Shown here: positions 8,009 through 40,878 of the stretch, in pieces
Layout: each line of letters begins with the position of its first letter
Numbering within the stretch: the first letter of the stretch is position 1
DNA from: a virus
Lineage: Duplodnaviria > Caudoviricetes
Length of the DNA: 64,000 bases
Reading direction: 5' to 3' (one strand)
IMG/VR virus record: IMGVR_UViG_3300034061_004620
Notes under the pieces: model-generated
Seen by the model: the letters and a program-made list of their open reading frames with translations, nothing else
What the model was told of the DNA's origin: nothing
Database searches by the model: none
Position numbers and translations under genes: made by a program

Positions 8009-8670
8009 TAGTACATCCGTTACGTAATAATTATTGGACCCGAAGAGGTTACGTAACTGGTACGTGTATGTATCACAGTGAACTTAAACAGTGCTATATT
8101 AACATTCCAAAAAATGCAAGTAGTTTTTTAAGGGAAGTGTTTAAAGATACCGGTTGGAAACACATGCATCTTGGAATGACTATGGATATAGAAAACTACA
8201 TAGTAATATTACGTGATCCGGTTGAAAGATGGATTACGGGAATAGCGCAACATATCACAACCAACATCTTAGGTGAAAATTTTGGTAGTACACATTATCT
8301 TGAACAAAGTAATGAATTAGTCGATCGTTTGATTTTTGATCAAATAGTATTTGATGATCATACTGAACAGCAATCATGGTTTTTAGAACCATTTGATCTT
8401 AAAGATGGTGTATTTTTTTATTGTGATGCAAATCTCAATCAAAATCTTGATAGTTATTTTGATTATAAATTTAAATTCGCCAATAGGCCTTATGTGAATA
8501 CAAGTGCATCGCAGTTTGATAATCAGAACTTAGTTGCTTATTTCAAGAAGCTTGTATACAATAACAAAACATATTATAATAGAATTAAATCCTACTTTCT
8601 CAGAGATTACGACTTAATAAACTCTGTAAACTTCTATGACTCAAGACAATCTTACAGCCAAACAAAATGA
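8005..8670 (+). CDS. Sulfotransferase family protein
   Basis: YINIPKNASS (5'-PSB loop) and ILRDPVERWITG (3'-PB). Confidence 0.75.
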   Translation: MIVHPLRNNYWTRRGYVTGTCMYHSELKQCYINIPKNASSFLREVFKDTGWKHMHLGMTMDIENYIVILRDPVERWITGIAQHITTNILGENFGSTHYLEQSNELVDRLIFDQIVFDDHTEQQSWFLEPFDLKDGVFFYCDANLNQNLDSYFDYKFKFANRPYVNTSASQFDNQNLVAYFKKLVYNNKTYYNRIKSYFLRDYDLINSVNFYDSRQSYSQTK

Positions 8671-10201
8671 CTATGCAGTGTTTTTGCCTGCTATATCTGG
8701 ATTCTATGCAACTTTTATAGGAAAACAACGTGTTAACAATGACTATGTTGATCCTGCTCGTATGCCGCAGGCATTACAAGACATGGAGCAATTCAACTGG
8801 CTTAACAGCCATCACGCTCTCTTTCCGTACCGATGGAGTCTTTACTCCGGAGGACACGCCAACCTTGATCTAACCAAAGAAGACCCTTCGGAAGATATGG
8901 TTCGTAAGCGAGAACCAGGTACTTTTATGTTAGGTGACTCTGGCGGGTTCCAAATTGCCAAAGGCTTGTGGGAGGGCGACTGGAAAGCCAACTCAGGATG
9001 TCCTCGGGCACAAAAGAAAAGAGAATTAGTACTTAAATGGTTGGATGGTATTGCAGACTATGGAATGATTTTAGATATTCCAACTTGGGTAATTCACGAC
9101 AAAAAGGCAAGTATCGCATGTGGAATAACTACATTACACGAAGCCGTTGCTGCAACCAAATACAATAATCAATATTTTATGCAGCATCGCAAAGGTAAGA
9201 ACAATGGCGGAGCAAGATTTTTAAACGTGCTGCAAGGCGATAATCATACATCAGCCGACGAGTGGTATCAAGAAATGAAAGAGTTTTGTGATCCTAATAA
9301 ATACCCAGACACACACTTTGATGGGTGGGCCATGGGCGGACAGAACATGTGTGATGTTCATCTTGTTCTAAAACGATTGGTAGAACTTAGATATGACAAC
9401 CTGTTACAAGAAGGAGTGCATGATTGGATGCACTTTTTAGGCACAAGTAAACTTGAATGGGCAGTGTTGCTTACTGTAATACAGCGGTCAGTACGTAAAT
9501 ATGTCAATCCAAAATTTACCATTTCATTTGATTGTGCAAGTCCTTTTCTGGCTACTGCCAACGGTCAAGTTTACCACCACATCGATTTACCTCACAATGG
9601 TAAATGGTGCTACCGTATGAGCCCTATAGTAGATGATAAAAAATATGCTACTGATACCAGACTATATGGCCAAGCTGTGCTGGCAGATGGACTTATTGAT
9701 ATTTTTGATGAAAGTCCTATTAGTAAAAATATGATGATGAAGGATGTGTGTGTTTACAAACCTGGAGATCTGAACAAGAATGGCAAAGAAGGTCGAACCA
9801 GCTGGGATAGTTTTAGTTACATGCTGCTCATGGGGCATAATGTTTGGACCCACATAGAAGCAGTTCAACGAGCCAACAGAGAATTTGATGCTGGATTTCA
9901 TCCTGCCATGATGCGACATGATCATATCGAAGCAGAATATTTTGAAGATATCGTAGAACGTATATTTGCAGCGCCAACAAAGCAAACTGCATTAGATATA
10001 GTCAATGCCGACAAATATGCCAGACCAAAAGGTTATTGGGAACAGATTGTCGGCACAAGAGGTTTCAAAGGAGAAAAAACTACTAATTCTTTCACAATGG
10101 CAAATCATCATTTAGAGATAGAAGGATCAGTTAAAGTGGATAAAGTTAAAAAAGAACAACCAAAACCAATTTTATTGCCTAATTTATTTGAGGAGACCTA
10201 A
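8636..10201 (+). CDS. dpdA: TGT-like 7-deazaguanine DNA transglycosylase (DpdA type)
   Basis: GDSGGFQ, ILDIP, LQG, GWAMGG, HFLG and SFDCASP match the TGT fold; no CxCxxC zinc site; folE/queD/queE nearby. Confidence 0.8.
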   Translation: MTQDNLTAKQNDYAVFLPAISGFYATFIGKQRVNNDYVDPARMPQALQDMEQFNWLNSHHALFPYRWSLYSGGHANLDLTKEDPSEDMVRKREPGTFMLGDSGGFQIAKGLWEGDWKANSGCPRAQKKRELVLKWLDGIADYGMILDIPTWVIHDKKASIACGITTLHEAVAATKYNNQYFMQHRKGKNNGGARFLNVLQGDNHTSADEWYQEMKEFCDPNKYPDTHFDGWAMGGQNMCDVHLVLKRLVELRYDNLLQEGVHDWMHFLGTSKLEWAVLLTVIQRSVRKYVNPKFTISFDCASPFLATANGQVYHHIDLPHNGKWCYRMSPIVDDKKYATDTRLYGQAVLADGLIDIFDESPISKNMMMKDVCVYKPGDLNKNGKEGRTSWDSFSYMLLMGHNVWTHIEAVQRANREFDAGFHPAMMRHDHIEAEYFEDIVERIFAAPTKQTALDIVNADKYARPKGYWEQIVGTRGFKGEKTTNSFTMANHHLEIEGSVKVDKVKKEQPKPILLPNLFEET

Positions 10202-10420: not shown

Positions 10421-11968
10421 ATGACCAAAGTTGTAATATTAAGCGTCCCATGGTGTGAAGCTTTTCCTTTGGTAGCGCCTGCATTATTAAGTAAATGTCT
10501 ACAACAGGCAGGCATTGACTCAGCTGGATTAGATTTAAATATAAAATTTATTCAAGAATTTTATAATAAACCCTATTGGAGTAATTTAAAGATTTTTTTG
10601 TCAAATGGATATGTAGATAAACAACTAAATTATCGTAGAATGATAATTGATTTATTTAAATTTATAAAAAGAGAACTTTTGGCAATTAATTTAGAACATA
10701 ACCCAACTCATTTAGGTTTGTCTATCTTTACAAACGAAAGTATTAACTTTAGCTATCTTTTAATTCATTATATCCGAAAATATCTCCCCCATGTAAAAAT
10801 TATTGTAGGCGGACGAGGTATAGAATCTGATTGCTCTTTAGAAAAAAAACCGCATTACCAGAAATATTTTGATCACGGTCTGGCAGATTTGATAGTAGTT
10901 GGTGATGCCGAAACAGCCATAATTGAATCTATTAAATCCAATCATGATGGCATATATTTTTCTAAAAAACAAAATCAACAAGACCTTGATAATATTCCGG
11001 CTCCGGACTGGAGTCACTATAATTTTTCTTTATATAGTACGCTTACAGACGAATTTGCACCTGCTGATAGATTAGCCGCCACATTTAATCCACAGGCTAT
11101 ATCTATTACTGCAAGTAAAGGATGTGTAAGAAAATGTACATTTTGTGATGTTGCCAATTATTGGCCAAACTACATTTATCGAGACGGTGCAAATGTAGCA
11201 AGAGATATAATAACCACTTACAGAACAACTGGAATTAAAAATTTTGAATTTACAGATAATTTGATAAATGGTAGTATCTCTCACTACAGAAAAATGAACA
11301 CTATCTTGGCAGAAACTATTCCAAGAGAAATTGCCTATAGTGGGTATGCGATTTTTAGACAAAAAGAATCAATGCCGGCCGAGGATTTTAGGTTAGCCTC
11401 ATTAGCAGGATGCGAAGCATGGGGAGTTGGTGTTGAATCAGGAAGCGAAACTGTTAGATACCACATGCGGAAAAAATTCAATAACGACGACTTAGATTTT
11501 GGAGTCAAACAATTACACAAAAACAATATAAGACAAACTTGGTGTTTAATGGTTGGATATCCAACTGAAACTGAGGATGATTTTAAAGAAACACTAAATT
11601 TATTACGTAGATACAAGAATTATAATAACAACGGTATGATTTCATTAAATATTACACAACCGTTTCAATTAAATCAAAATACTCCTTTGATGCAAGAAGA
11701 AGAATTTACATCAACACTTAATTGGGCACACGAAGGAGATAGTAATCACCATGAAAGATTTTTTTGGGTCACTCCTGGAAATCCTGGTAACAATTTCTTA
11801 TCACGATATAAAAGATGGCACCAGCTTATTGATTTATCCGAAGAATTAGGTTATTCTTACCATATGCGAATGGCTCTGTTATTTTCAAAATGGCGAGACG
11901 AACTTGAAAGTTTAAAACAAATTTATGAACAATCAAATAAAAAAATTTTCTTTTTCAGTCGAGCTTAA
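10421..11968 (+). CDS. B12-binding-domain (class B-like) radical SAM protein
   Basis: N-terminal Rossmann-like region (IIVGGRG, VVGDAE), ASKGCVRKCTFCD, GVESGS, MVGYPTET. Confidence 0.85.
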   Translation: MTKVVILSVPWCEAFPLVAPALLSKCLQQAGIDSAGLDLNIKFIQEFYNKPYWSNLKIFLSNGYVDKQLNYRRMIIDLFKFIKRELLAINLEHNPTHLGLSIFTNESINFSYLLIHYIRKYLPHVKIIVGGRGIESDCSLEKKPHYQKYFDHGLADLIVVGDAETAIIESIKSNHDGIYFSKKQNQQDLDNIPAPDWSHYNFSLYSTLTDEFAPADRLAATFNPQAISITASKGCVRKCTFCDVANYWPNYIYRDGANVARDIITTYRTTGIKNFEFTDNLINGSISHYRKMNTILAETIPREIAYSGYAIFRQKESMPAEDFRLASLAGCEAWGVGVESGSETVRYHMRKKFNNDDLDFGVKQLHKNNIRQTWCLMVGYPTETEDDFKETLNLLRRYKNYNNNGMISLNITQPFQLNQNTPLMQEEEFTSTLNWAHEGDSNHHERFFWVTPGNPGNNFLSRYKRWHQLIDLSEELGYSYHMRMALLFSKWRDELESLKQIYEQSNKKIFFFSRA

Positions 11969-12309: not shown

Positions 12310-12822
12310 ATGAACAGAAATGGTCATACTAACACAAAATTATTTGTAGGACAAGAAGTGGAACATACCCCTGCACATGGTCAAAAAACTTTGTTTGTTG
12401 TAGGAATTCAGGATAAAGACTTGATCGAAGCTGCCGCGGTTGCTCATAAATGTACACATGTGTATTTTGGTGCCAATCAAAGCTTTCCTAAAATTAATAC
12501 TAATAGTGCAGAGTGGACTCGTTGGGAGAATATGATATTTCCTTTTCTTGGCCAAGGCTATTGGTGTACATTGGATATTGATGTAAATCAAGTTGAAGGT
12601 TTATTGGAAAGTGGACTCACCGAACATTATAAATTTATTCCCATGATATCGGTAAAATTACCCTATTTACAACAATTAGGATATAATGCTACAATTAAAC
12701 TTGATGACAAAGATTTTGCTGCAACTAATCCTGGTGTATGGTGTCATCAAGTTCATGACTTAGCAAGTAGAAGAAAGTTTACCGATTGGTCAAAATATAC
12801 AAGTGACGAGATTATAAGATGA
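12310..12822 (+). CDS. Hypothetical protein directly upstream of dpdL
   Basis: 170-aa ORF; EVEHTP, HVYFGANQSF, WCTLD. Confidence 0.7.
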   Translation: MNRNGHTNTKLFVGQEVEHTPAHGQKTLFVVGIQDKDLIEAAAVAHKCTHVYFGANQSFPKINTNSAEWTRWENMIFPFLGQGYWCTLDIDVNQVEGLLESGLTEHYKFIPMISVKLPYLQQLGYNATIKLDDKDFAATNPGVWCHQVHDLASRRKFTDWSKYTSDEIIR

Positions 12823-13253
12823 ATCAAACACAAAGAGAATCAGCGGATAGAATTATGCAATTTGCCGCAAGACAAATATGGGTAACCTTCCAAAAAGAAG
12901 GTATTCATAAATACCCGGCAGCATTGGAGGATCCCGGTCTTGCGGATGTTAATTTTCTTGGTTACCCTCACCGTCACATCTTTCACTTCAGGGTGTCAAT
13001 TGATGTGTTCCACAATGATCGGGACATCGAGTTCATCCAATTCAAACGATGGCTGGAAAGCCTGTATAATAGTGGGAACCCGGTTTTAGAACTGGATTAT
13101 AAAAGCTGTGAAATGATAGCTGACGATTTATACGTCCAAATAGCTAACAGATATCCCAACAGAAATGTTACAATAAGCGTAAGTGAAGACAATGAAAATG
13201 GTTGTACGATTACTTACGCCACTCATCAACCCTCTCTATCAATAAAAATTTAA
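12819..13253 (+). CDS. dpdL: QueD-like T-fold protein, DpdL-like (predicted CDG decarboxylase)
   Basis: LGYPHRHIF fits LxxxHRHxF rather than the QueD CxxxHGH; DIEF, SCEMIA and VSEDNENG are T-fold features. Confidence 0.7.
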   Translation: MNQTQRESADRIMQFAARQIWVTFQKEGIHKYPAALEDPGLADVNFLGYPHRHIFHFRVSIDVFHNDRDIEFIQFKRWLESLYNSGNPVLELDYKSCEMIADDLYVQIANRYPNRNVTISVSEDNENGCTITYATHQPSLSIKI

Positions 13254-15604: not shown

Positions 15605-16570
15605 ATGAAAGTGGTAGTTACTGGAGGATGTGGCTACATTGGTAGTCATATCGCTCGTTATCTCAAACAACACAATGAAAATTGTAGTGTGTACGTTATT
15701 GATCGTGAGCGTAGAGACCATACCTTAAAGAATGTTGATGGTTTCTTACATACCGATTATGTTTCTCGACAGACTTTATTGTGGTTAGATGAACTACAAC
15801 CAGACGTCATTGTTCATTGTGCCGGCGACATATCTGTTAGAGAAAGTGTAGAAGATCCTGCGAAATATTATGACAACAATGTTGCAAGGACAATTACCTT
15901 TTTAAATCATGTTAAAAATTATAAAAAGAAACCGCAAATTCTTTTTAGTAGCAGTGCCAGTGTGTACGGCAATCCTGATCGCGTTCCATTGGTTGAAACA
16001 GATCGGATAAAACCAATTAGTCCATATGGACACACTAAAGATATAATAGAACAAGTTTTATTAAATTATAATCAAGCATACGGATTACCAGCAGTTTGTT
16101 TCAGATATTTTAATGCAGCAGGTGCGGAACCCAATAACTATGATTTAGGTCAAGCTGCAGGAGCGGGACATATCATTGCAAGACTGTTAGAATCAAAAAT
16201 ACGTGACGAGTATTTCACATTAAATGGTGTAGATTTCAATACTGCTGACAGAACTTGCGTACGAGATTATATTCATGTGTGGGATCTTGCTGACGCACAT
16301 AATCGAGCTATACATTGGAACAAGAACCAACAATTTGCAGTATTCAATTTAGGTACTAATAGTGGCATCAGCAATCAGCAAATTATAGATTACATCTCTA
16401 TAAATTATGGTCCGTTAAAAATACACGTAGGCCCTCGCAGACCAGGGGATCCTGATCAATTGATAGCTGATGCTGCGCTGGCAAATAACGTTCTTGGATG
16501 GCAACCAAATCATTCAACCTTGAATCAAATCGTTGATTCAGCCTACAAATGGTACACTCGTGGCATTTGA
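15605..16570 (+). CDS. galE: UDP-glucose 4-epimerase-like extended SDR
   Basis: GGCGYIGSH, FSSSASVYG, YGHTK, RYFNAAGA, RDYIHVWDLA, RRPGDP. Confidence 0.88.
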   Translation: MKVVVTGGCGYIGSHIARYLKQHNENCSVYVIDRERRDHTLKNVDGFLHTDYVSRQTLLWLDELQPDVIVHCAGDISVRESVEDPAKYYDNNVARTITFLNHVKNYKKKPQILFSSSASVYGNPDRVPLVETDRIKPISPYGHTKDIIEQVLLNYNQAYGLPAVCFRYFNAAGAEPNNYDLGQAAGAGHIIARLLESKIRDEYFTLNGVDFNTADRTCVRDYIHVWDLADAHNRAIHWNKNQQFAVFNLGTNSGISNQQIIDYISINYGPLKIHVGPRRPGDPDQLIADAALANNVLGWQPNHSTLNQIVDSAYKWYTRGI

Positions 16571-17147
16571 AGAAATTGCACAATTTGAACAACTATTAGC
16601 AAAGAAAACTGGGGCACCTTATGCCATCATGACCGATTGTTGCACTCATGCAATAGAGCTTTGCTTGAGATATCAACGTGTGAATCAAGTGGCCTTTACA
16701 GCCTATACCTATTTGAGTATTCCCATGCTCATGCACAAATTAGGTATCATGTACATGCACACCGATGAAGCATGGATTGGCGAATATCAATTCCACGGAA
16801 CCAACATATGGGATAGTGCCAGAAGATTAGAAAACAACATGTATAGACCTGGTATGATGCAATGTTTGAGTTTTGGTCATAACAAGCCTTTACAAATAGG
16901 CCATGGTGGTGCTATACTATTAGATGACAAAGAGGCATATGATGTTTTATTACAACAGAGATATGATGGACGGAACCTTAGTATCCAACCATGGCAAGCC
17001 CAGCAGGTTTTCAAGGTGGGTTACCATTATAGGCCAACTATTGAAGATGCAAGGATCGGTTTAGAAAAATTGTATTTTGTTAACGAACCGCCTAAATATC
17101 ACGACTATCCAGATCTTAGAAACATACAAATTATTGGAGACACTTAA
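16560..17147 (+). CDS. Short DegT/DnrJ-like PLP enzyme
   Basis: DCCTHAI, DSA, SFGHNKPLQIGHGGAIL (PLP Lys loop), GYHYR; only about 195 aa. Start uncertain (16533 or GTG 16560). Confidence 0.7.
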   Translation: MAFEEIAQFEQLLAKKTGAPYAIMTDCCTHAIELCLRYQRVNQVAFTAYTYLSIPMLMHKLGIMYMHTDEAWIGEYQFHGTNIWDSARRLENNMYRPGMMQCLSFGHNKPLQIGHGGAILLDDKEAYDVLLQQRYDGRNLSIQPWQAQQVFKVGYHYRPTIEDARIGLEKLYFVNEPPKYHDYPDLRNIQIIGDT

Positions 17148-17911
17148 TGGTTTATAACAAAGTATACGAAAGCAATGACGAAACAGGATTAGATGCAATG
17201 GCCGGTGACGGTGGTTACAAAGAATCAACATTGTCAGCTGCTATTCGTGCCAGAATGAAACGTGACGGTAAAAGGTATTGGGCCGGAGACAACATTAGTG
17301 ATTACTTACACGAAAGCGATCGAGAACATTTGATCAATGAGGCTACCGAAGCATTTGAGAAGGTGTTAGACACGCTACTAATTGATAGAGAAACAGATCC
17401 TAACAGCCAAGGTACTGCACGCCGACTTGCAAAAATGTACTTCAATGAATTGATGGCAGGAAGATATGACCCAACACCTAACGCAACTGCGTTTCCAAAT
17501 GACACCGAAGGAGCATACGACGGCATGCTCGTCGTCCGTTCTGAGCTTAAGAGTGTTTGCAGCCATCATCACCAACCTGTTACAGGCGTTGCATATATTG
17601 GCATTATTGCTGGTCCCAAACTCATTGGGCTTTCTAAATACACCCGAATTGCCCAATGGTGCGCTCGTCGTGGAACGCTACAAGAAGAACTTTGCATGGA
17701 CATTGCACGAGAAATTGAATTTGCAACTGGAAGTAAGGATGTGGCTGTATATATCCAGGCGACGCACGGATGCTGCGAGAATAGAGGAATTATGGCACAC
17801 AGTAGTCTTACCCAGACCACAGTGTTAAGAGGTGCGTTTAAGGATGATCAAAGCACCAAGAAAGAGTTCTTTGACAACATTAAACTACAACAGGAGTTTG
17901 CTCCGCGATGA
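17147..17911 (+). CDS. folE: GTP cyclohydrolase I
   Basis: CSHHHQP, IGLSKYTR, LQEEL, HGCCENRG. Confidence 0.95.
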   Translation: MVYNKVYESNDETGLDAMAGDGGYKESTLSAAIRARMKRDGKRYWAGDNISDYLHESDREHLINEATEAFEKVLDTLLIDRETDPNSQGTARRLAKMYFNELMAGRYDPTPNATAFPNDTEGAYDGMLVVRSELKSVCSHHHQPVTGVAYIGIIAGPKLIGLSKYTRIAQWCARRGTLQEELCMDIAREIEFATGSKDVAVYIQATHGCCENRGIMAHSSLTQTTVLRGAFKDDQSTKKEFFDNIKLQQEFAPR

Positions 17912-18156
17912 AATGTATCACTTGCGATCGAGAATACTCAACGACCTGCGACTGGAATCAAGGTCGTTGCCCCCATCATCCGCCATTGCTAAACGTACAA
18001 CCAAAAGATACCAGTAGAGGACATTTTTATGTTAGTCTTGCAAAAAGTGCTATTAGAATATTTGCAGGCGGCGTACTAATGGCCGGTAACATTTGGTTAG
18101 CTGGTTTATGTATTGTGTTAGCCGAATTATTAGGTGTTATTGAAGAGATTGTTTAA
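17908..18156 (+). CDS. Hypothetical protein with Cys-rich N-terminus and hydrophobic C-terminus
   Basis: CITC..C..CPHH; ATGA coupling. Confidence 0.5.
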   Translation: MKCITCDREYSTTCDWNQGRCPHHPPLLNVQPKDTSRGHFYVSLAKSAIRIFAGGVLMAGNIWLAGLCIVLAELLGVIEEIV

Positions 18157-18181
18157 GATAATTATTAATAGGAGACAACAA

Positions 18182-18859
18182 ATGGAATACGCATTGCCTT
18201 ATAGAACAGCCACCGAAATCAACAGTGCCATGGGTCGTGTATACGGTAATATGGCTTTAGCAGTTATTACCAGTATGATTGTTAGTATGTTTGTGGCATC
18301 TAACGCAGACTTAATGGCTTTCTTTTTTACCGGAATTGTAAAATGGATCGTGATCTTTGCTCCACTGGCGGCAATTTTTGCAGTAGGTTATGTGTTAGGA
18401 AATAATCCAAGCAAAGTTACCGCTCAACTATGTTTGCACGGCTTTGCGGCACTTATGGGCCTTAGTTTTGCAACTATTTTTGTAATCTATACAACAGCAA
18501 GTATTGTGAACGCATTTCTTGGTGCAGCAGTATTGTTTAGTACAATGAGTTTCTATGGCTATTTTACTAAAAAAAGTTTAGATAGTTTTGGAAAATATTT
18601 GATAGTAGGACTTATTGCAATTATTATAGTTAGCATTATTAATATTTTTATCGGATCGTCTGCATTGCAGATGTTCATCAGTGCCGCAGCAGTCTTAATC
18701 TTTTTAGGGTTAACTGCCTACGACACACAAAAAATTCGAGAGCAAATTATGGAAAGTTCAAGCCCGGCCATTGAAGCGATGGGCGCATTAACATTGTATT
18801 TAGACTTTATTAATTTGTTCTTGAGTCTATTACAATTATTCGGAGGTAGGAGAGAATAA
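18182..18859 (+). CDS. Bax inhibitor-1/YccA family membrane protein
   Basis: About 7 TM segments; AYDTQKI and ALTLYLDFINLF signature. Confidence 0.88.
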   Translation: MEYALPYRTATEINSAMGRVYGNMALAVITSMIVSMFVASNADLMAFFFTGIVKWIVIFAPLAAIFAVGYVLGNNPSKVTAQLCLHGFAALMGLSFATIFVIYTTASIVNAFLGAAVLFSTMSFYGYFTKKSLDSFGKYLIVGLIAIIIVSIINIFIGSSALQMFISAAAVLIFLGLTAYDTQKIREQIMESSSPAIEAMGALTLYLDFINLFLSLLQLFGGRRE

Positions 18860-20245: not shown

Positions 20246-21037
20246 ATGAACATAGGTATAGTCGGAATGGGCTATGTTGGGCGGGCAGTTCAGGCATCGT
20301 GGTTGGGCTCTCAACACAAAGTGAAATATTATGATCCTGCTGTGGACGGATCGGTGAGTGATTTACAAGAATTAGTTAGTGGTAATCCGTCGGCGATTTT
20401 TATATGCGTACCTACACCTTCTATAGATACTGGCGAATGTGATCTTAGTATTATAATAACAACATTAGATCAAATAAAAACAACGTATTCAGGTATGATT
20501 GTTATCAAAAGCACAGTACCACCAGATTTTTGGCAGGCTTATATCGCACATGATAACATCTTTCATGTGCCTGAATTTTTAGTAGCAAGTCGGGCCATTC
20601 AAGATTATCTTAATCCTGAATTTATTTTTATTGGTGGAAATAAAAGTCAGACTCATAAAGTTTCACAATTACTTGCTTCAAGTGCCGTTAACACAGCCGT
20701 TCCTATATATTATACAGATCTAATCACTGCAAGTCTTGTGAAATATTTTATGAATACCTTTTTAGCTACCAAAGTAACAGTACTAAACCAGTTCAGTCAA
20801 CTGAGCAACGCAATTGGTGCCAATTGGGATGATTTTACTCAAATGATTGAAATAGATAATAGAATGGGATCGAGTCATACTCAAGTTCCCGGTCCAGACG
20901 GCAAATACGGATACGGAGGTGCTTGCTTTCCCAAGGATGTTCGTGCTATAATACATTCCATGCAAAAGCACAATGTAAGTGCAGGCATAATCGAAGCAGT
21001 TGACGCTGCTAACACACAATTCAGAGGTAAAGAATGA
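20246..21037 (+). CDS. ugd: UDP-glucose/GDP-mannose dehydrogenase family, lacking the C-terminal domain
   Basis: GMGYVG, ICVPTP, IKSTVPP, PEFL, KYFMNTFLATKV, GYGGACFPKD. Confidence 0.8.
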   Translation: MNIGIVGMGYVGRAVQASWLGSQHKVKYYDPAVDGSVSDLQELVSGNPSAIFICVPTPSIDTGECDLSIIITTLDQIKTTYSGMIVIKSTVPPDFWQAYIAHDNIFHVPEFLVASRAIQDYLNPEFIFIGGNKSQTHKVSQLLASSAVNTAVPIYYTDLITASLVKYFMNTFLATKVTVLNQFSQLSNAIGANWDDFTQMIEIDNRMGSSHTQVPGPDGKYGYGGACFPKDVRAIIHSMQKHNVSAGIIEAVDAANTQFRGKE

Positions 21038-21585
21038 GCAAAGTATACTACACCAATAAACACGTTAGATCGTGGATACACTCTATCGTAAGAGAAATGA
21101 CGAATCAAAATTGGCGTCCAGATTATGTTGTAGGCTTGACCCGTGGTGGCCTTATACCTGCCGTCCTTATTAGTCAATATTTAGGCGTTCCTATGCATAC
21201 CCTGAATGTTAGTTTAAGAGATAGTAATTTAGGCCCAGAAAGCAATTTATGGATGGCCGAAGAAGCGTTTGGATATGTACCCGACGACGAAAGAAATGGT
21301 AGTGATACCAAAGTTGATCCAGCATATAGAAAAAAAATCTTAATCGTAGATGATATCAATGATACTGGTGCCACTCTCGAATGGATAAAAAATGATTGGA
21401 CCAGTGGATGTTTGCCCAACCACAGTGCGTGGGATAGCGTTTGGAATAAAACAACGCGATTTGCTGTGTTAGTGAACAACGAAGTAAGTAATTTTAAAGA
21501 CGTTGATTATGTTGGAACATCTATAAACAAACATGAAAATCCTATGTGGGCAGTATTTCCTTGGGAAGCGTGGTGGGAGAGATGA
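21034..21585 (+). CDS. Type I phosphoribosyltransferase (Gpt/Hpt-like)
   Basis: VGLTRGGLIPA, ILIVDDINDTGATL, WAVFPWE. Confidence 0.88.
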   Translation: MSKVYYTNKHVRSWIHSIVREMTNQNWRPDYVVGLTRGGLIPAVLISQYLGVPMHTLNVSLRDSNLGPESNLWMAEEAFGYVPDDERNGSDTKVDPAYRKKILIVDDINDTGATLEWIKNDWTSGCLPNHSAWDSVWNKTTRFAVLVNNEVSNFKDVDYVGTSINKHENPMWAVFPWEAWWER

Positions 21586-22104: not shown

Positions 22105-22128
22105 AATAAAATAAATATTTTTCCACAC

Positions 22129-22195
22129 AGCGGCCTTTCTGGCATTCATCCCGCTTTACAAATTCTGCAAGCCTATGTTAATATTAATATAGGAG
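22129..22195 (+). promoter_or_regulatory. Candidate cis-regulatory RNA in the queD leader
   Basis: AGCGG/CCGCT stem, A-rich tail, then a CCTATGTTAATATTAATATAGG hairpin overlapping the SD. Confidence 0.45.
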
Positions 22196-22202
22196 AATCA
22201 AA

Positions 22203-22718
22203 TTGGCAAAGTTTTACTCAACAAAAACATATGGTAATGACCGAGGACTGTCATGTTGTTTTAGACAATGGCGTGCCACACACAGTCATTGTTCAACATT
22301 ACATGGCTACTCAATTGGCATTAAATTGATCTTTGAATGCGATACACTGGATGACAAAAACTGGTGTATGGACTTTGGTGGACTCAAAGAATTCAAAGCA
22401 TGGGCTGATCACATGTTTGATCACACCTTGATAGTCGCCGAAGATGATCCGATGTTGGATTTTTTTAAACACATGAACGAAATAGTAGATATTGATAGCA
22501 AAGATCATTTAAGTAAATTTCCATATGCACGTGGCGCATTATGTGATTTACGTATTGTGCCGGGTGTAGGATGCGAAATGTTTGCCAAACTATGCTATGA
22601 CAAAATGGCTGAACTATTAGCATCGGGAGAAATGCGTTATCCAATCAATCCAACAGTGCGTGTTAAATCAGTAGAAGTATTTGAACACGGTGCTAACTCA
22701 GCCACATACGAAGGTTAA
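22203..22718 (+). CDS. queD: 6-carboxytetrahydropterin synthase
   Basis: CSTLHGY, MDFGGLK, FDHT, VEVFEHGANSA; TTG start after AGGAG. Confidence 0.9.
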   Translation: MAKFYSTKTYGNDRGLSCCFRQWRATHSHCSTLHGYSIGIKLIFECDTLDDKNWCMDFGGLKEFKAWADHMFDHTLIVAEDDPMLDFFKHMNEIVDIDSKDHLSKFPYARGALCDLRIVPGVGCEMFAKLCYDKMAELLASGEMRYPINPTVRVKSVEVFEHGANSATYEG

Positions 22719-22720
22719 CA

Positions 22721-23584
22721 ATGAGCAAAATTAAAGTAGCAGAACTGTTTTACAGCATACAAGGTGAAGGACGCTACATGGGTGTTCCCAGTGTGTTCTT
22801 GCGTACATTTGGATGTAATTTTAAATGTGCAGGCTTTGGTATGCCACGTGGCGAAATCAGTATTGAAGCAGATGATGTTGCATACACACATGCAAATATT
22901 GAATACTTTCACAAATATGAAGAACTTCCGTTAGTTAAAACTGGTTGTGATAGTTATGCCAGTTGGCACCCGGCATTCAAGGATCTTAGTCCGGTAATAG
23001 ATTCTGACGGTATTGTAGAGCGCATCATGCAAATTCTTCCGCACGGAAAATGGAAGGATGAACATCTGGTAATCACTGGTGGTGAACCTCTGTTAGGATG
23101 GCAGCGTAGTTATCCAGACTTGCTCAACCACCCACGTATGCGTAAGTTAAAAGAAATTACTTTTGAAACTAACGGTACTCAAGAGTTAACTGCTGATTTT
23201 GCAGATTATCTTGTACAATGGCAAATGCCTGGTCCTAATTTTTCTCGCGAGGTAACTTTTAGTGTAAGTGCAAAGTTACCAGCCAGTGGAGAATCGTGGA
23301 TCGAGGCTATTCGTCCAGAGATTGTACGTCAATATCAGACTATTGGACATACATATCTTAAGTTTGTTGTAGCCACAGATGAAGATGTAAAGGATGCGCT
23401 AAAGGCAGTTGAACAATATCGCAATGCCGGCTTTCATGGATCTGTTTATCTAATGCCCGTAGGTGGAGTAGAAAGTGTTTATTCATTAAATAATAGGCGA
23501 GTGGCAGAATTAGCTATGCGACATGGATTACGTTATAGTGATAGATTGCAAGTACCATTATTCAAGAACGAATGGGGAACGTAA
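22721..23584 (+). CDS. queE: 7-carboxy-7-deazaguanine synthase (radical SAM)
   Basis: ELFYSIQGEG, FLRTFGCNFKC...GCDS, ITGGEP, ETNG. Confidence 0.92.
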   Translation: MSKIKVAELFYSIQGEGRYMGVPSVFLRTFGCNFKCAGFGMPRGEISIEADDVAYTHANIEYFHKYEELPLVKTGCDSYASWHPAFKDLSPVIDSDGIVERIMQILPHGKWKDEHLVITGGEPLLGWQRSYPDLLNHPRMRKLKEITFETNGTQELTADFADYLVQWQMPGPNFSREVTFSVSAKLPASGESWIEAIRPEIVRQYQTIGHTYLKFVVATDEDVKDALKAVEQYRNAGFHGSVYLMPVGGVESVYSLNNRRVAELAMRHGLRYSDRLQVPLFKNEWGT

Positions 23585-36163: not shown

Positions 36164-37081
36164 ATGGAAAAACAATACTTAGATGCATTGCGTGATGTTT
36201 TAGAAACAGGAACACGCAGAGACGATCGTACGAGCGTAGGCACCGTATCAAAATTTGGTATGCAGCAACGTTATGACTTATCAAAAGGATTCCCGGCAGT
36301 AACTACAAAGAAACTGGCCTGGAAAGCTGTTATTGGTGAGTTACTTTGGATGATAGAAGGCAGCGGTGACGAACGCAGACTTGCTGAGATAACACACGGT
36401 ACGAAAGATGGTGTTGTAACTATTTGGACGCCTAATGCACTGGCGCCTTATTGGAAGCCCAAAGCCAAATATGAAGGTGATTTGGGTCGTGTGTATGGTG
36501 TACAATGGCGTCGTTGGCGCAGTATTAAAGAACGAGAAGCAAATGGATCATTTACTGACAGCTTTGGCTCTACTTATCGAAGAGTAGGTAATGCAGTTGA
36601 AGTAAAAGAAATTGACCAACTCAAGAATTTGATTGAAGGTATACGGGCGGACCCACACGGACGCAGGCATATATTATCTGCATGGAATCCAGGCGAATTA
36701 GATGCCATGGCTCTGCCCCCGTGTCATTGCTTTGCACAGTTTTATGTAGCAGACGGACGGTTGTCATGTCAGATGTATCAGAGATCCTGCGATATGTTTT
36801 TAGGCGTTCCCTTTAACATCGCGAGCTATAGTCTACTCACACACATGATAGCACAGGTGTGTGATCTGCAAGTAGGTGAGTTCGTTCACGTACTCGGCGA
36901 TGCTCATGTATATCTGAATCATGTAGAGCAGGTAAAAGAACAATTGCAACGTGAACCATTACCTGCTCCAACTCTTTGGTTAAACCCTGCTATTAAAGAT
37001 ATAACTAAGTTTAGTATCGATGATATTCAATTACATGATTATCGTCACCATGATCCTATAAAGGCTACAATGGCAGTATGA
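36164..37081 (+). CDS. thyA: Thymidylate synthase
   Basis: RDDRT, TTKKLAW, LPPCH, YQRSCDMFLGVPFNIASY, GDAHVY. Confidence 0.97.
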   Translation: MEKQYLDALRDVLETGTRRDDRTSVGTVSKFGMQQRYDLSKGFPAVTTKKLAWKAVIGELLWMIEGSGDERRLAEITHGTKDGVVTIWTPNALAPYWKPKAKYEGDLGRVYGVQWRRWRSIKEREANGSFTDSFGSTYRRVGNAVEVKEIDQLKNLIEGIRADPHGRRHILSAWNPGELDAMALPPCHCFAQFYVADGRLSCQMYQRSCDMFLGVPFNIASYSLLTHMIAQVCDLQVGEFVHVLGDAHVYLNHVEQVKEQLQREPLPAPTLWLNPAIKDITKFSIDDIQLHDYRHHDPIKATMAV

Positions 37082-38592
37082 AAATATTACTTATCGGAAA
37101 CGAAACCAGAGATACAGACTTACGTGCAAGTATTTTAGCAAAAAACTTAAAGTATGAAAAAAATGGCCTATTAGCAATGCCATTACCTGACACAATTGAT
37201 GACGGCATTTATCACACGAGTGTAGTAGACATCCACCCTGGTGATCTAATTAAGGTTTCTAATAATTTTGATCGTATAATTTTGGCCGATCAAAACATTA
37301 AAAGTTACCCACATTATAAAACTTTTGTTACTACAGTGCGATTTTTTATAGACTTAGAAAATAATAAAACCAATGTTACATTTAAAGAAAATAAAAATGT
37401 ACAAAGTTATTTACAATGGAAAAAATTTTTAACGCATAACAAAAGTTTTTGTTTTTATCCTTTTCTTGCTTTAATTGACAACTGGCAGGATACTACAATT
37501 TGCCCAAAAAACTTTGTTCCTATTGATAAAATTGGCCACACGTCTGAATGGCAAACAAATAAAAAATATATAGAAATAAGAAACAACATGGCACAGGGAA
37601 TACAAATGCCAGAAAGATGTCATGACTGCTACGATAGAGAAAATGAAGGACAGGAAAGTACGCGACAATTTGAAACACTGGAATGGACTCAACGCTTAGG
37701 CCTAAATTCAGTAGATGATTTTTTTAAAATTACTAATCCAGTTTATTATGAAATTAGACCAAGTTCAACTTGTAATATAATGTGCAGAACATGCGACGAT
37801 TTTCATAGCACACTTATAGAAAAAGAATGGAAAAAGATTAACATACCTTTAGTTACAGAAAAGTTAGGAAATTACAGAAATACTTCTTTTGATATTATAA
37901 ATTTTGATACGTTGGAGAGAATTTATGTAGGCGGCGGAGAGCCAACAATAATGCCAGAATTTTATTCTTTTTTACAAAAGTGTATAGCACAAGGTAAGAC
38001 ATCATTCGAATTAAACATTGGCACAAATGGTATGTTTTTTTCAAAAAAATTAATTAGCCTATTGGATAATTTTACTGATGTTTGTTTTTCATTTAGTTAC
38101 GATGGTTATGGTAAAGTAAATGACTACATTAGATGGAAATCAGATTTTGATACAATTGTCCAAAATGGACGTATGCTTAGAGATAGAGGACACAAAATAG
38201 CATTACAAACTGTATTTTCTATGTACAGTATTACAAGAATACACGAGGTTTTTGAATTTTTTGATCAAGAATATTTAGGGAGCGGTCTATTAGTACAGGT
38301 AGCCGGTGGATTTGATAATATATTCATGCCGTATAATCACCCACGCCCTGATCTTGTAGTGCAGTCAATGATACAATGTCAAAAAACCAAAATATATTAC
38401 ATGAATGGTAGGTCAATAAAATCAATGGTTGATCTTTTACTTGATTACTACTCTAATCCCAATTACAAATGTGATCCGGTGATGTTAGAAAAATTTTACA
38501 GTATCAATGATAAACTTGATATTTCAAGAAAATCAAATCTAATAGATTATATACCCGAATTAGCCGAAGCAAGACACTTGTATAACTTATGA
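37078..38592 (+). CDS. Radical SAM protein with extra N-terminal domain and SPASM/twitch-like domain
   Basis: CFYPF..ICP..CHDC, CNIMCRTC, GGGEP. Confidence 0.88.
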   Translation: MKILLIGNETRDTDLRASILAKNLKYEKNGLLAMPLPDTIDDGIYHTSVVDIHPGDLIKVSNNFDRIILADQNIKSYPHYKTFVTTVRFFIDLENNKTNVTFKENKNVQSYLQWKKFLTHNKSFCFYPFLALIDNWQDTTICPKNFVPIDKIGHTSEWQTNKKYIEIRNNMAQGIQMPERCHDCYDRENEGQESTRQFETLEWTQRLGLNSVDDFFKITNPVYYEIRPSSTCNIMCRTCDDFHSTLIEKEWKKINIPLVTEKLGNYRNTSFDIINFDTLERIYVGGGEPTIMPEFYSFLQKCIAQGKTSFELNIGTNGMFFSKKLISLLDNFTDVCFSFSYDGYGKVNDYIRWKSDFDTIVQNGRMLRDRGHKIALQTVFSMYSITRIHEVFEFFDQEYLGSGLLVQVAGGFDNIFMPYNHPRPDLVVQSMIQCQKTKIYYMNGRSIKSMVDLLLDYYSNPNYKCDPVMLEKFYSINDKLDISRKSNLIDYIPELAEARHLYNL

Positions 38593-38816
38593 TTTTCCAT
38601 GAGTTCAACTTAGGTGATGTTGAAGATCCTGAAATATACGCTGCCACACCACTTTGTGATTGGCAAAACTCTGAACAGGGTAGGTGGATCATGCAACATT
38701 GCAGAGATCCAAAATACAAGGTATCTGTGGATCCATACAACTATGGTTATAAGGTCATTGTGTATGGAGATCTTACACCCGAAGCCGCAACCTATTTTAC
38801 CTTAAAGTATAAATGA
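38589..38816 (+). CDS. Hypothetical protein
   Basis: ATGA coupling; ends YFTLKYK. Confidence 0.6.
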   Translation: MIFHEFNLGDVEDPEIYAATPLCDWQNSEQGRWIMQHCRDPKYKVSVDPYNYGYKVIVYGDLTPEAATYFTLKYK

Positions 38817-39781
38817 AAACATTTATCACCGGCGGAGCTGGTTTTATTGGACACAATGTTATTAAACTCTTACGAGATAAGGGTGTAGATTGTTACAGCG
38901 TAGATTCAAGAACAGACTACGGCTTCATACCCAACGATGAACTTGATTACTTGATTAAAGGTAGAATCAATAGATCAGGCTTTGCACCTTTGTTTGTGGA
39001 CATCAGAAATACAGAAACAATTAAAAGTCATATTGGTATTTTTGATATTAAATGTATCGTACATCTTGCCAGTTTTCCAAGACAAAAGGTAGTACAACAA
39101 GATCCTGTAACTGCAAGCCAGGTCATGGTAACTGGATTGATAAACTTATTGGAAGCTGCTGTCACATATAAAGTTCGCAGATTTGTGTATATCAGTTCAA
39201 GCATGGTGTATGGCGACTTTGAATCTGGTATTACTGAAGATGCTGTTTGTCAACCACAAGGTCAGTACGGTATAATGAAGTACATGGGAGAAAAATTAGT
39301 CGAGGATTATTGTAAACGACACAACATAGAATATGTTATCATTCGTCCAAGTGCAGTATACGGCGAATGGGATGTTGATGATCGTGTTGTGAGTAAATTC
39401 GCATTAGCTGCACTCAGAAATCAAGAATTAGTTGTACGTGGTGCCAATGAAAGACTTGATTTTACTCATGTACATGATACTGCACAAGGCATTGTGGATG
39501 CTATTTTAAGCCCCAATGCTACTAATAAAATTTACAATATTACTCGTAGTAATCCTGACACAATAACATTAGCAGATGCTGCAAAACTAATAACCAATAT
39601 TGTTGGTAAAGGATCAATTAGAATTGCTGATAGAGATTTAAGTTTTCCCAGTCGTGGTAGATTAAGTATTCAACGAGCACAACAAGATTTTAATTTTACC
39701 CCGACAATTGATGTCAAAAAAGGATTTGAAAAATACATTGATTGGTTACAATCTTCTTCATATTGGCAACATAAGTTATGA
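38813..39781 (+). CDS. NAD-dependent nucleotide-sugar epimerase/dehydratase
   Basis: TGGAGFIG, HLAS, ISSSMVYG, YGIMK, RPSAVYG, DFTHVHD. Confidence 0.9.
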   Translation: MKTFITGGAGFIGHNVIKLLRDKGVDCYSVDSRTDYGFIPNDELDYLIKGRINRSGFAPLFVDIRNTETIKSHIGIFDIKCIVHLASFPRQKVVQQDPVTASQVMVTGLINLLEAAVTYKVRRFVYISSSMVYGDFESGITEDAVCQPQGQYGIMKYMGEKLVEDYCKRHNIEYVIIRPSAVYGEWDVDDRVVSKFALAALRNQELVVRGANERLDFTHVHDTAQGIVDAILSPNATNKIYNITRSNPDTITLADAAKLITNIVGKGSIRIADRDLSFPSRGRLSIQRAQQDFNFTPTIDVKKGFEKYIDWLQSSSYWQHKL

Positions 39782-40878
39782 ATACCATTCCGTTCTTTGG
39801 TATCAATAGACAGTACAAAAATCTACGAGAAGAAATTTTAGATATTACTGATAGAATATATTCCACAGGACGAGTTCTTGACGGCGAATACACAAAACAT
39901 TTTGAAGAAAAAATAGCACGCCGGTGCAATAGAGCTTATGCTGTAGCTGTCAATTCAGGTACACAGGCTTTGATATTTGCTCAATTGGCAGCAATGCATC
40001 AACCTCCTTATTCTGTTCTTATTCCTACCATAAGTTTTGCTGCAACGATCAATAGTGTATTAATGAACGGTTACACACCGGTATTTTGTGATATAGATTA
40101 CAAAGGATTAATGGATCTAAGTTCTTATCAATACAAACTTGACCGAAGTGTAGGTGCAGTAATGTATGTAAATTTGTTCGGAAATTGCATTGATTGGGAT
40201 CAATTTAGAATCCAAACTGAATTTTTTAATGATGGTTTACTTATTATCGAAGATGCTGCTCAAAGCTTTGGTGCTTGTTACAAAGACATACCCAGCGGCA
40301 AGATGGGTGACATTAGTGTATTAAGTTTTGATCCAACAAAGAATTTAAATAACTACGGATCGGGAGGCATGATACTCACTGACGATTTTAAAATTTACGA
40401 AAGAGTTATGTCTCTAAGAGACAACGGAAAACCTCTACACGATCAACCAGGTACTAATAGTAAAATGAACGAAGCTGATTGTGCCCAAATGTTAATTAAA
40501 CTTCAACATTTTGATGCATGGCAACGACGTAGAACAGAGATAGCTAACTATTACATAGACAATCTATATCAATACGTAGATGTACTTGTTCCTAACGAAC
40601 ATGTTACACATGCCTGGCACAAGTTTGTAATTAGGACACACGAAAGAACTGCATTGCAATCAAGACTGGCTCAAAACGGAATTGAAACTAAAATTCATTA
40701 TCAAGATGCCTTATACGATTTAGAAGTAGGCTTTCATTATGTAGATCACGTAGAAGATAGATTTACAGAAACAGCCTCGTTTACCAGAGAATGTCTTAGT
40801 TTGCCTATCTATCCAGAATTGTCAGACTGCGAAGTAGAAACCATTGTAGATTGCATCAAACATTATATAGATTCTTAA
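39778..40878 (+). CDS. DegT/DnrJ/EryC1/StrS sugar aminotransferase
   Basis: NSGTQAL, EDAAQS, SFDPTKNLNNYGSGG, NSKM, LSLPIYP. Confidence 0.93.
   Translation: MNTIPFFGINRQYKNLREEILDITDRIYSTGRVLDGEYTKHFEEKIARRCNRAYAVAVNSGTQALIFAQLAAMHQPPYSVLIPTISFAATINSVLMNGYTPVFCDIDYKGLMDLSSYQYKLDRSVGAVMYVNLFGNCIDWDQFRIQTEFFNDGLLIIEDAAQSFGACYKDIPSGKMGDISVLSFDPTKNLNNYGSGGMILTDDFKIYERVMSLRDNGKPLHDQPGTNSKMNEADCAQMLIKLQHFDAWQRRRTEIANYYIDNLYQYVDVLVPNEHVTHAWHKFVIRTHERTALQSRLAQNGIETKIHYQDALYDLEVGFHYVDHVEDRFTETASFTRECLSLPIYPELSDCEVETIVDCIKHYIDS

Follow-up and report, generated by a model that had tools for sequence, protein, structure and literature searches.

The window analysed here is the whole 64,000-nt stretch of the IMG/VR virus record IMGVR_UViG_3300034061_004620. 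It contains a queD-like gene of the 6-carboxytetrahydropterin synthase family and a queE-like radical SAM gene, which is probably co-transcribed with queD. The TTG at 22203 is the earliest possible start of QueD, with an in-frame TAA at 22185. A TTG start of queD is found in the window and its closest relatives (L020, L021, L080), and nearly all other leaders have an ATG. The features of the locus are collected in Table 1.

In front of queD, downstream of an ATAAATA which the sequence readout places at 22111-17, lies a leader with two stems, P1 and P2, and three loops. An earlier note on this DNA had listed the ATAAATA, P1 with its 17-nt loop and the tail behind it, and the following hairpin, the Shine-Dalgarno sequence and the TTG; all of these are correct base for base. 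Absent from it were P2 (22141-45 with 22169-73) and the promoter-like site inside the leader. P1 and P2 together form a 45-nt H-type pseudoknot, 22129-22173. P2 of the window is weak, with four pairs (G22141-C22173, G22142-C22172, C22143-G22171 and U22145-A22169) and an internal A.A mismatch (A22144.A22170). When the leader is folded alone its energy is ordinary (z = -0.86), and the structure therefore rests on comparison and not on the window sequence alone. An alternative register of P2, UGGCAU 22140-45 with AUGUUA 22175-80, pairs equally well in the window subtype; its 3' arm is constant within the subgroup, which leaves this register without two-sided covariation. The alternative register may thus occur, and the switch logic described below would be the same with it.

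Table 1. The queD leader and the genes discussed in the text, with positions in the window.
Feature	Position	Strand	Remarks
521-aa ORF, DpdA/TGT-like (putative)	8636-10201	+	FMLGDSGGFQ; GDSGGFQ is a TGT/DpdA-type catalytic motif
144-aa T-fold ORF, DpdL-like (putative)	12819-13253	+	LGYPHRHIF; PHROG 17812 (function unknown)
FolE	17147-17911		
Xanthine/hypoxanthine-guanine-type phosphoribosyltransferase	21034-21585	+	directly upstream of the queD leader
P1 5' arm AGCGG	22129-22133	+	partner 22151-55
L1 CCUUUCU	22134-22140	+	family consensus N-C-U, then variable; total length 4-12 nt
P2 5' arm GGCAU	22141-22145	+	partner AAGCC 22169-73
L2 UCAUC	22146-22150	+	invariant C22150 directly 5' of the P1 3' arm
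P1 3' arm CCGCU (DNA CCGCT)	22151-22155	+	closes the 17-nt loop CCTTTCTGGCATTCATC
Embedded sigma-70-like promoter site	22155-22184	+	-35 TTTACA 22155-60, 18-nt spacer, TG 22176-77, -10 TAATAT 22179-84
L3 UUACAAAUU + CUGC	22156-22168	+	13 nt in every family member; as DNA the tail TTACAAATTCTGC
P2 3' arm AAGCC	22169-22173	+	C22172-C22173 common to pseudoknot and sequestor hairpin
RBS-sequestor hairpin CCUAUGUUA / UAAUAUAGG	22172-22193	+	arms 22172-80/22185-93, 4-nt loop; near-palindromic DNA CCTATGTTA/TAATATAGG; present in MFE folds; 3' arm takes in the AGG of the Shine-Dalgarno AGGAG
Shine-Dalgarno AGGAG	22191-22195	+	7 nt 5' of the TTG start
queD-like gene	22203-22718	+	TTG start; Pfam PTPS 3.2e-16; PHROG 2389 QueD-like 8e-36
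queE-like radical SAM gene	22721-23584	+	PHROG 2076 QueE-like 2e-50; NCBIfam QueE matches below cut-offs

A search by QueD protein similarity retrieved 355 relatives from IMG/VR, and 80 were kept for the leader analysis. Although these 80 loci were retrieved by the QueD protein alone, the leader is present in the 110 nt upstream of queD in 76 of them, with a fully paired P1 in 75 and a single mismatch in one (L068). The four other loci have no leader because queD abuts another ORF. A second set was collected with a pattern taken from unpaired parts only, TCATCC-N5-WANANAYTCTGC, which leaves the P1 5' arm and P2 untouched. The pattern is present in at least 120 further viral contigs in IMG/VR; among the matches listed, the leader is real in 108 of 120 (106 with a perfect P1, two with one mismatch), the other 12 being chance matches, and the downstream ORF belongs to the QueD family in 102 of 104. 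The motif with its covariation is found before queD in about 180 phage contigs and is tied to this gene across QueD proteins diverged to about 45% identity. There is exactly one copy in each of five phage records (228-355 kb), and in the 64-kb window the L2-P1-L3 pattern occurs once, against 0.00 expected. On this comparative basis the leader is more than a chance structure.

The window DNA is contained in many lake-water metagenomes, and two metatranscriptome runs contain 5-9% of its sampled words. The phages bearing the motif are large and have a T4-like family-B polymerase. By blastn, neither the locus nor the aptamer had a motif-bearing relative among GenBank phages, and a model built from all sequences (R1) had no match in 307 sampled bacterial genomes (5 + 302). 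A pattern scan of genome contigs is uninformative on bacteria, none of the 119 matches listed being real and all of them due to chance. Copies of the element were found in uncultured phages only, and in the literature we found no description of the motif.

Alignment A1 consists of 132 unique aptamers, giving 125 distinct rows and 53 columns. Its members were chosen for a fully paired P1, so that 100% pairing of this stem follows from the selection, which does not account for the compensatory variety. Two-sided changes occur at four of the five P1 pairs, and seven different P1 sequences are found (AGCGG/CCGCT, AGAGG/CCUCU, UGCGG/CCGCA, AGUGG/CCACU, AGUCG/CGACU, ACCGG/CCGGU and AUCGG/CCGAU); L068, L090 and L105 are further copies with one P1 mismatch each. 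P2 has a length of 3-7 bp in the family. Its five core pairs (columns 17-21 with 45-49 of A1) are paired in 79-86% of the sequences with 11-65 two-sided changes each, and the variants include GGCAU/AUGCC, GACGC/GUGUC, GGCG/CGCC and GACUU/AAGUC. The covariation score of A1 is 0.468, compared to 0.153 +/- 0.010 for shuffled alignments and at most 0.114 when the partners are slid. Covariation persists inside the window subtype, where P1 is AGCGG/CCGCU or ACCGG/CCGGU and P2 is GGCA/UGCC, GGCG/CGCC, GGGC/GUCC or GGCU/AGCC, and therefore the RNA fold is under selection there too.

Thirteen unpaired nucleotides are nearly invariant in the family. In 124 of the 125 distinct sequences L1 has a C at its second position with a U after it, and L2 (columns 22-26 of A1) reads T in 121, C in 121, A in 120, T in 118 and C in all 125. 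L3 has the consensus N-U-A-N-A-N-A-Y-U-C-U-G-C and its length is fixed; the adenines corresponding to 22158, 22160 and 22162 are invariant and the U-C-U-G-C is invariant or nearly so. Two of the variable positions of L3 depend on the middle pair of P1. When this pair is C-G (89 sequences), position 4 of L3 is not A in 88 and position 6 is A in all 89; when it is A-U or U-A (36 sequences), position 4 is always A and position 6 is another base in 33. The mutual information between columns 5/29 of A1 and columns 35 and 37 (22131/22153 against 22159 and 22161 in the window) is 0.81 and 0.73 bits, uncorrected for phylogeny. This pattern suggests a base triple in which L3 would be docked on P1, as it is in preQ1-I. 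That a conserved RNA pseudoknot is present in these leaders we regard as close to certain.

Model R1 has a single match in the window, with 60.7 bits. Model R2 was built from 81 sequences of the other subgroups only (alignment A2), the window subgroup being excluded. Its score for the window leader (22129-22177) is 40.6 bits, with E about 8e-12, compared to 11.7 bits for the second match, and the leader match is the sole significant one in 64 kb. Scans with the Rfam 15 collection at E <= 10 covered 2.5 kb of the window, a slice of 101 nt and 12 loci of other subtypes; they gave nothing relevant, and PreQ1, preQ1-II and preQ1-III were matched in none of these sequences. Membership of preQ1-I/II/III, of THF-II or of any catalogued family is ruled out by these permissive scans. 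The queD-leader pseudoknot would thus be an uncatalogued RNA which resembles preQ1-I in architecture only. The earlier note had proposed a riboswitch-like leader before queD, to be checked by aligning the leaders of phage queD homologs and by scanning with the preQ1-I/II/III and THF-II models. The alignment brought out covariation in both stems and, with 76 of the 80 loci, a structured leader that is conserved and specific to phage queD; the scans gave no match, in keeping with its remark that the sequence does not agree with the preQ1-I consensus.

The strand on which the switch depends is the P2 3' arm. The expression platforms of 149 distinct leaders were folded from the CUGC to +15 only, and the MFE structures of 148 have two or more nucleotides of the P2 3' arm in pairs with the region from the Shine-Dalgarno sequence to the AUG. 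The sequestered element is the Shine-Dalgarno sequence plus the AUG in 62, the AUG in 46 and the Shine-Dalgarno sequence in 40. Three designs are found, all of which use the P2 3' arm: UGYCAUUG/CAAUGGCA or GUCAUC/GAUGGC, covering the start codon; CCUAUG/CAUAGG, which covers the Shine-Dalgarno sequence and is the type of the window; and UGUCUUC/GGAGACA, also covering the Shine-Dalgarno sequence. In the window subtype CCUAUG/CAUAGG is conserved, with the rare compensated variants CCUAUA/UAUAGG (L157) and CUCUAUU/AAUAGAG (L197). Untranslated positions of the sequestor covary as well, position -1 being C-G in 57 leaders and U-A in 30, and position -3 being C-G in 45 and U-A in 21. The P2 5' arm is a look-alike of the start region: GGCAU resembles auGGCA, GGCAA resembles auGGCAA and, in phages whose QueD starts with MTY, GACUU resembles auGACUU. 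Since the 5' arm copies the start region, the P2 3' strand chooses between two look-alike partners, and this mutually exclusive pairing is the signature of a switch.

The mechanism that we propose has 22129-22173 as the aptamer and 22172-22205 as the expression platform. With no effector bound, the hairpin 22172-80/22185-93 would form and hide the Shine-Dalgarno sequence. An effector would stabilise the pseudoknot of P1 and P2, and the P2 3' arm (22169-73) would then withdraw C22172-C22173 from the sequestor hairpin, which would be weakened; the ribosome site of queD would be exposed and translation turned ON, and queE would probably follow by coupling. As the pseudoknot and the RBS sequestor compete for one strand, a stabilised pseudoknot is predicted to free the ribosome site. 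The comparison with preQ1-I made by the earlier note is sound for the H-type pseudoknot, the 5-bp P1 and the A-rich L3, to which an invariant C at the end of L2 can be added, and fails for the regulatory wiring, which is reversed: the preQ1-like behaviour that it implied is at variance with a downstream hairpin which is the RBS sequestor and with which the pseudoknot competes, giving a predicted ON switch. We infer the binding of a small molecule, most likely a metabolite, as the effector. Taken as one joint claim, a metabolite-sensing translational ON switch of which the copy in the window works in spite of its embedded promoter seems to us rather probable.

The embedded promoter site of the window has a predicted transcription start at about 22191, downstream of the aptamer. 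A TTTACA or TATACA, a spacer of 17 or 18 nt and a TAWAAT, always with the TG, are embedded in 47 of 54 leaders of the window type compared to 2 of 95 of the other types, and a promoter just upstream of P1 is seen in one of the 54. Among the 95 non-window leaders, 35 have a near-consensus promoter (TTGACA-N16/17-TATAAT) with the -10 ending about 7 nt before P1, and in these 35 the aptamer would lie at the very 5' end of the mRNA. In most subtypes a TGCTA or TGCTT is conserved 3-9 nt after the P2 3' arm (cattGCTAa, aacTTGCTAc, ctaTGCTAt; e.g. L024, L033), and in the window subtype this element serves at once as the TG and as the beginning of the -10. A reading of it as a MotA box was dropped because the implied transcription start lay inside the ORF. 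A transcript begun at the embedded site, near 22191, would not include the aptamer. The genes upstream of the aptamer in the window have its orientation, and no terminator-like site separates them from it, which makes read-through transcripts plausible. From this arrangement one would expect long regulated transcripts and possibly short unregulated ones.

The surrounding genes point to DNA modification, the context that had been supposed for the leader from the start: FolE, QueD, QueE and DpdL-like and DpdA-like proteins are encoded. The DpdL-like ORF has the LxxxHRH which was proposed as the signature of the CDG decarboxylase DpdL (PMC10516641). It has homologues in all five motif-bearing jumbo genomes, with a TAA in the matched frame in two. 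The 521-aa ORF was missed by Pfam, PHROGs and the PDB sequence search. Its neighbours in the ESM Atlas include viral clusters with TGT and a DpdA cluster. Homologues with 49-79% identity are present in all five jumbo phages, and also in PA5oct-like Pseudomonas phages, whose annotation calls them hypothetical. The ORF is probably a divergent DpdA3-like DNA transglycosylase; it should be noted that the DpdA-like and DpdL-like assignments are putative ones, made by motifs and weak similarity only. A 'no DpdA' reading, suggested by the absence of Pfam TGT in the five genomes, was dropped in view of the GDSGGFQ in this ORF and its homologues in all five. A clear QueC was not found in the window or in the motif-bearing phages examined, and these phages would therefore not make preQ0 or preQ1. 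Cellulophaga phage phiST has a QueC-less dDG DNA-modification system with FolE, QueD, QueE, DpdL and DpdA3 (PMC10516641), and the word riboswitch is absent from the paper on it. FolE, QueD, QueE, the LxxxHRH T-fold gene and a distant TGT-like gene with GDSGGFQ are all present in the window, and judged by gene content the regulated pathway is most likely a QueC-less 7-deazaguanine (dDG) system of the phiST type.

Further genes lie between those of the deazaguanine pathway: two B12-binding or radical-SAM methyltransferase-like genes (10421-11968 and 37078-38592, + strand), epimerases (15605-16570 and 38813-39781), a DegT (39778-40878), a UDP-glucose dehydrogenase (20246-21037) and a membrane protein of the Bax1-I family (18134-18859). 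In 32 related loci, homologues of the phosphoribosyltransferase lie at a median of -645 nt from queD. This enzyme could recycle guanine from DNA transglycosylation or ribosylate a deazapurine.

The invariant C beside P1 suggests a guanine-faced base or a pterin as the ligand. We rank highest such a base or pterin from the FolE-QueD-QueE-DpdL-DpdA pathway, which would be read by C22150; candidates might be guanine released by the transglycosylase, H2NTP/CPH4, CDG and 7-deazaguanine. The ON logic favours a substrate or a demand signal over an end product. For turning ON the first committed enzyme of a pathway in this way, we know of no obvious textbook rationale.

Four other explanations of the leader have to be weighed against a metabolite-sensing ON switch. 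It may be postulated that the leader of the window subtype works mainly as DNA, the embedded sigma-70 promoter with its -35 in L3 and its extended -10 in the hairpin loop driving queD, while the aptamer serves read-through transcripts only or is a relic. The distribution of promoters fits this, since nearly all window-type leaders have the embedded site and only one a promoter upstream of P1, the reverse of the other subtypes, and the hairpin loop (CUAUAAU or similar) is conserved for no obvious RNA reason. However, P1 and P2 still covary inside the window subtype, read-through is plausible with no terminator-like site upstream, and both roles can coexist; we consider a mainly DNA function unlikely. 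A ligand-independent structured leader, which would set a fixed level of translation, serve as an RNA thermometer or shield the mRNA at its 5' end, agrees with the ordinary fold energy. Such a leader would have no need for two exclusive pairings or for a decoy of the start region, both of which are kept by covariation, nor for the nearly invariant unpaired nucleotides, and this explanation is very improbable.

The pseudoknot could instead be a translational operator for a protein, either QueD itself or a translational regulator of the phage, which would shift the equilibrium between pseudoknot and sequestor. The structure and the competing pairings would fit any effector that stabilises the pseudoknot, and the hosts of the motif are large phages with a T4-like family-B polymerase; the T4-like large phages are a group known for RNA operators. 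Against an operator stand the size of the aptamer, its invariant loop nucleotides and its preQ1-I-like layout, which are typical of metabolite pockets, and its tie to one enzyme gene across QueD proteins that differ down to about 45% identity. There is also no conserved candidate for an adjoining RNA-binding partner, as the neighbouring genes vary, and we assign a low probability to a protein effector. The leader might finally be an ordinary, much diverged preQ1-I riboswitch, that is, an OFF switch sensing preQ1, with which it shares the H-type pseudoknot, the 5-bp P1, the C before the P1 3' arm and the A-rich L3. This is at variance with the missing PreQ1 match at E <= 10 (101 nt and 12 other loci), with an L3 of 13 nt that has an invariant UCUGC, with a P2 3' arm which is the anti-RBS strand and not the Shine-Dalgarno sequence, so that the logic is inverted, and with phages that have no clear QueC; an ordinary preQ1-I switch is hardly credible here.

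Returning to the metabolite-sensing ON switch, we propose tentatively, as a possibility that falls short of probable, a new class confined to large environmental phages which would have a preQ1-I-like pocket with inverted logic, sense a metabolite of the guanine-to-7-deazaguanine cycle and turn on QueD. Candidate metabolites would be the guanine released by a DpdA-type transglycosylase or the pterin substrate. To our knowledge all preQ1 riboswitches described so far are OFF switches; we also know of few riboswitch classes that phages carry for pathways of their own and of none for DNA hypermodification. If true, this would provide the first known case of DNA hypermodification under riboswitch control. 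The identity of the ligand would show how timing or balance is achieved when these phages replace guanine completely in their DNA. With a 45-nt aptamer, clear covariation, hundreds of natural variants and several platforms, the system is tractable for ligand hunting and for structure work, and a compact ON switch may be of use in synthetic biology.

Among the known systems the closest in layout is preQ1-I (RF00522; types I-III, e.g. the leaders of B. subtilis queC, of T. tengcongensis and of E. coli yhhQ), an H-type pseudoknot with a P1 of 5-6 bp, a short P2, a highly conserved specificity cytidine in L2 and an A-rich L3 docked in the minor groove of P1 (PMC10622847). By analogy C22150 would be the equivalent of this specificity cytidine (PMC10622847). 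The two RNAs have in common a small H-type pseudoknot, a P1 of 5 bp, a short loop-tail P2, a conserved cytidine as the last nucleotide of L2 in front of the P1 3' strand and an A-rich L3, and both stand before a gene of the 7-deazaguanine pathway with translational control, which is a prediction for the queD leader. In contrast to preQ1-I, the queD leader is unmatched by the Rfam model and has a longer L1, a 13-nt L3 ending in UCUGC and a P2 of 3-7 bp. Its P2 3' strand hides the Shine-Dalgarno sequence or the AUG (predicted ON), whereas the P2 3' strand of preQ1-I holds the Shine-Dalgarno sequence (OFF). The guanidine-III riboswitch is a translational ON switch built on a pseudoknot, in which compaction stabilised by the ligand is coupled to release of the RBS. 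The queD leader is like it in the predicted release of the RBS, but there is no similarity in sequence or model and the gene context is another. The pseudoknot in the leader of gene 32 of phage T4 is a translational operator in equilibrium with an alternative hairpin fold. In the E. coli rpsO/S15 operator, too, a leader pseudoknot and an alternative hairpin exert translational control (PMC3985624). The gene 32 and rpsO/S15 elements bind their own protein product and repress, whereas the queD leader has invariant loops and an activating design.
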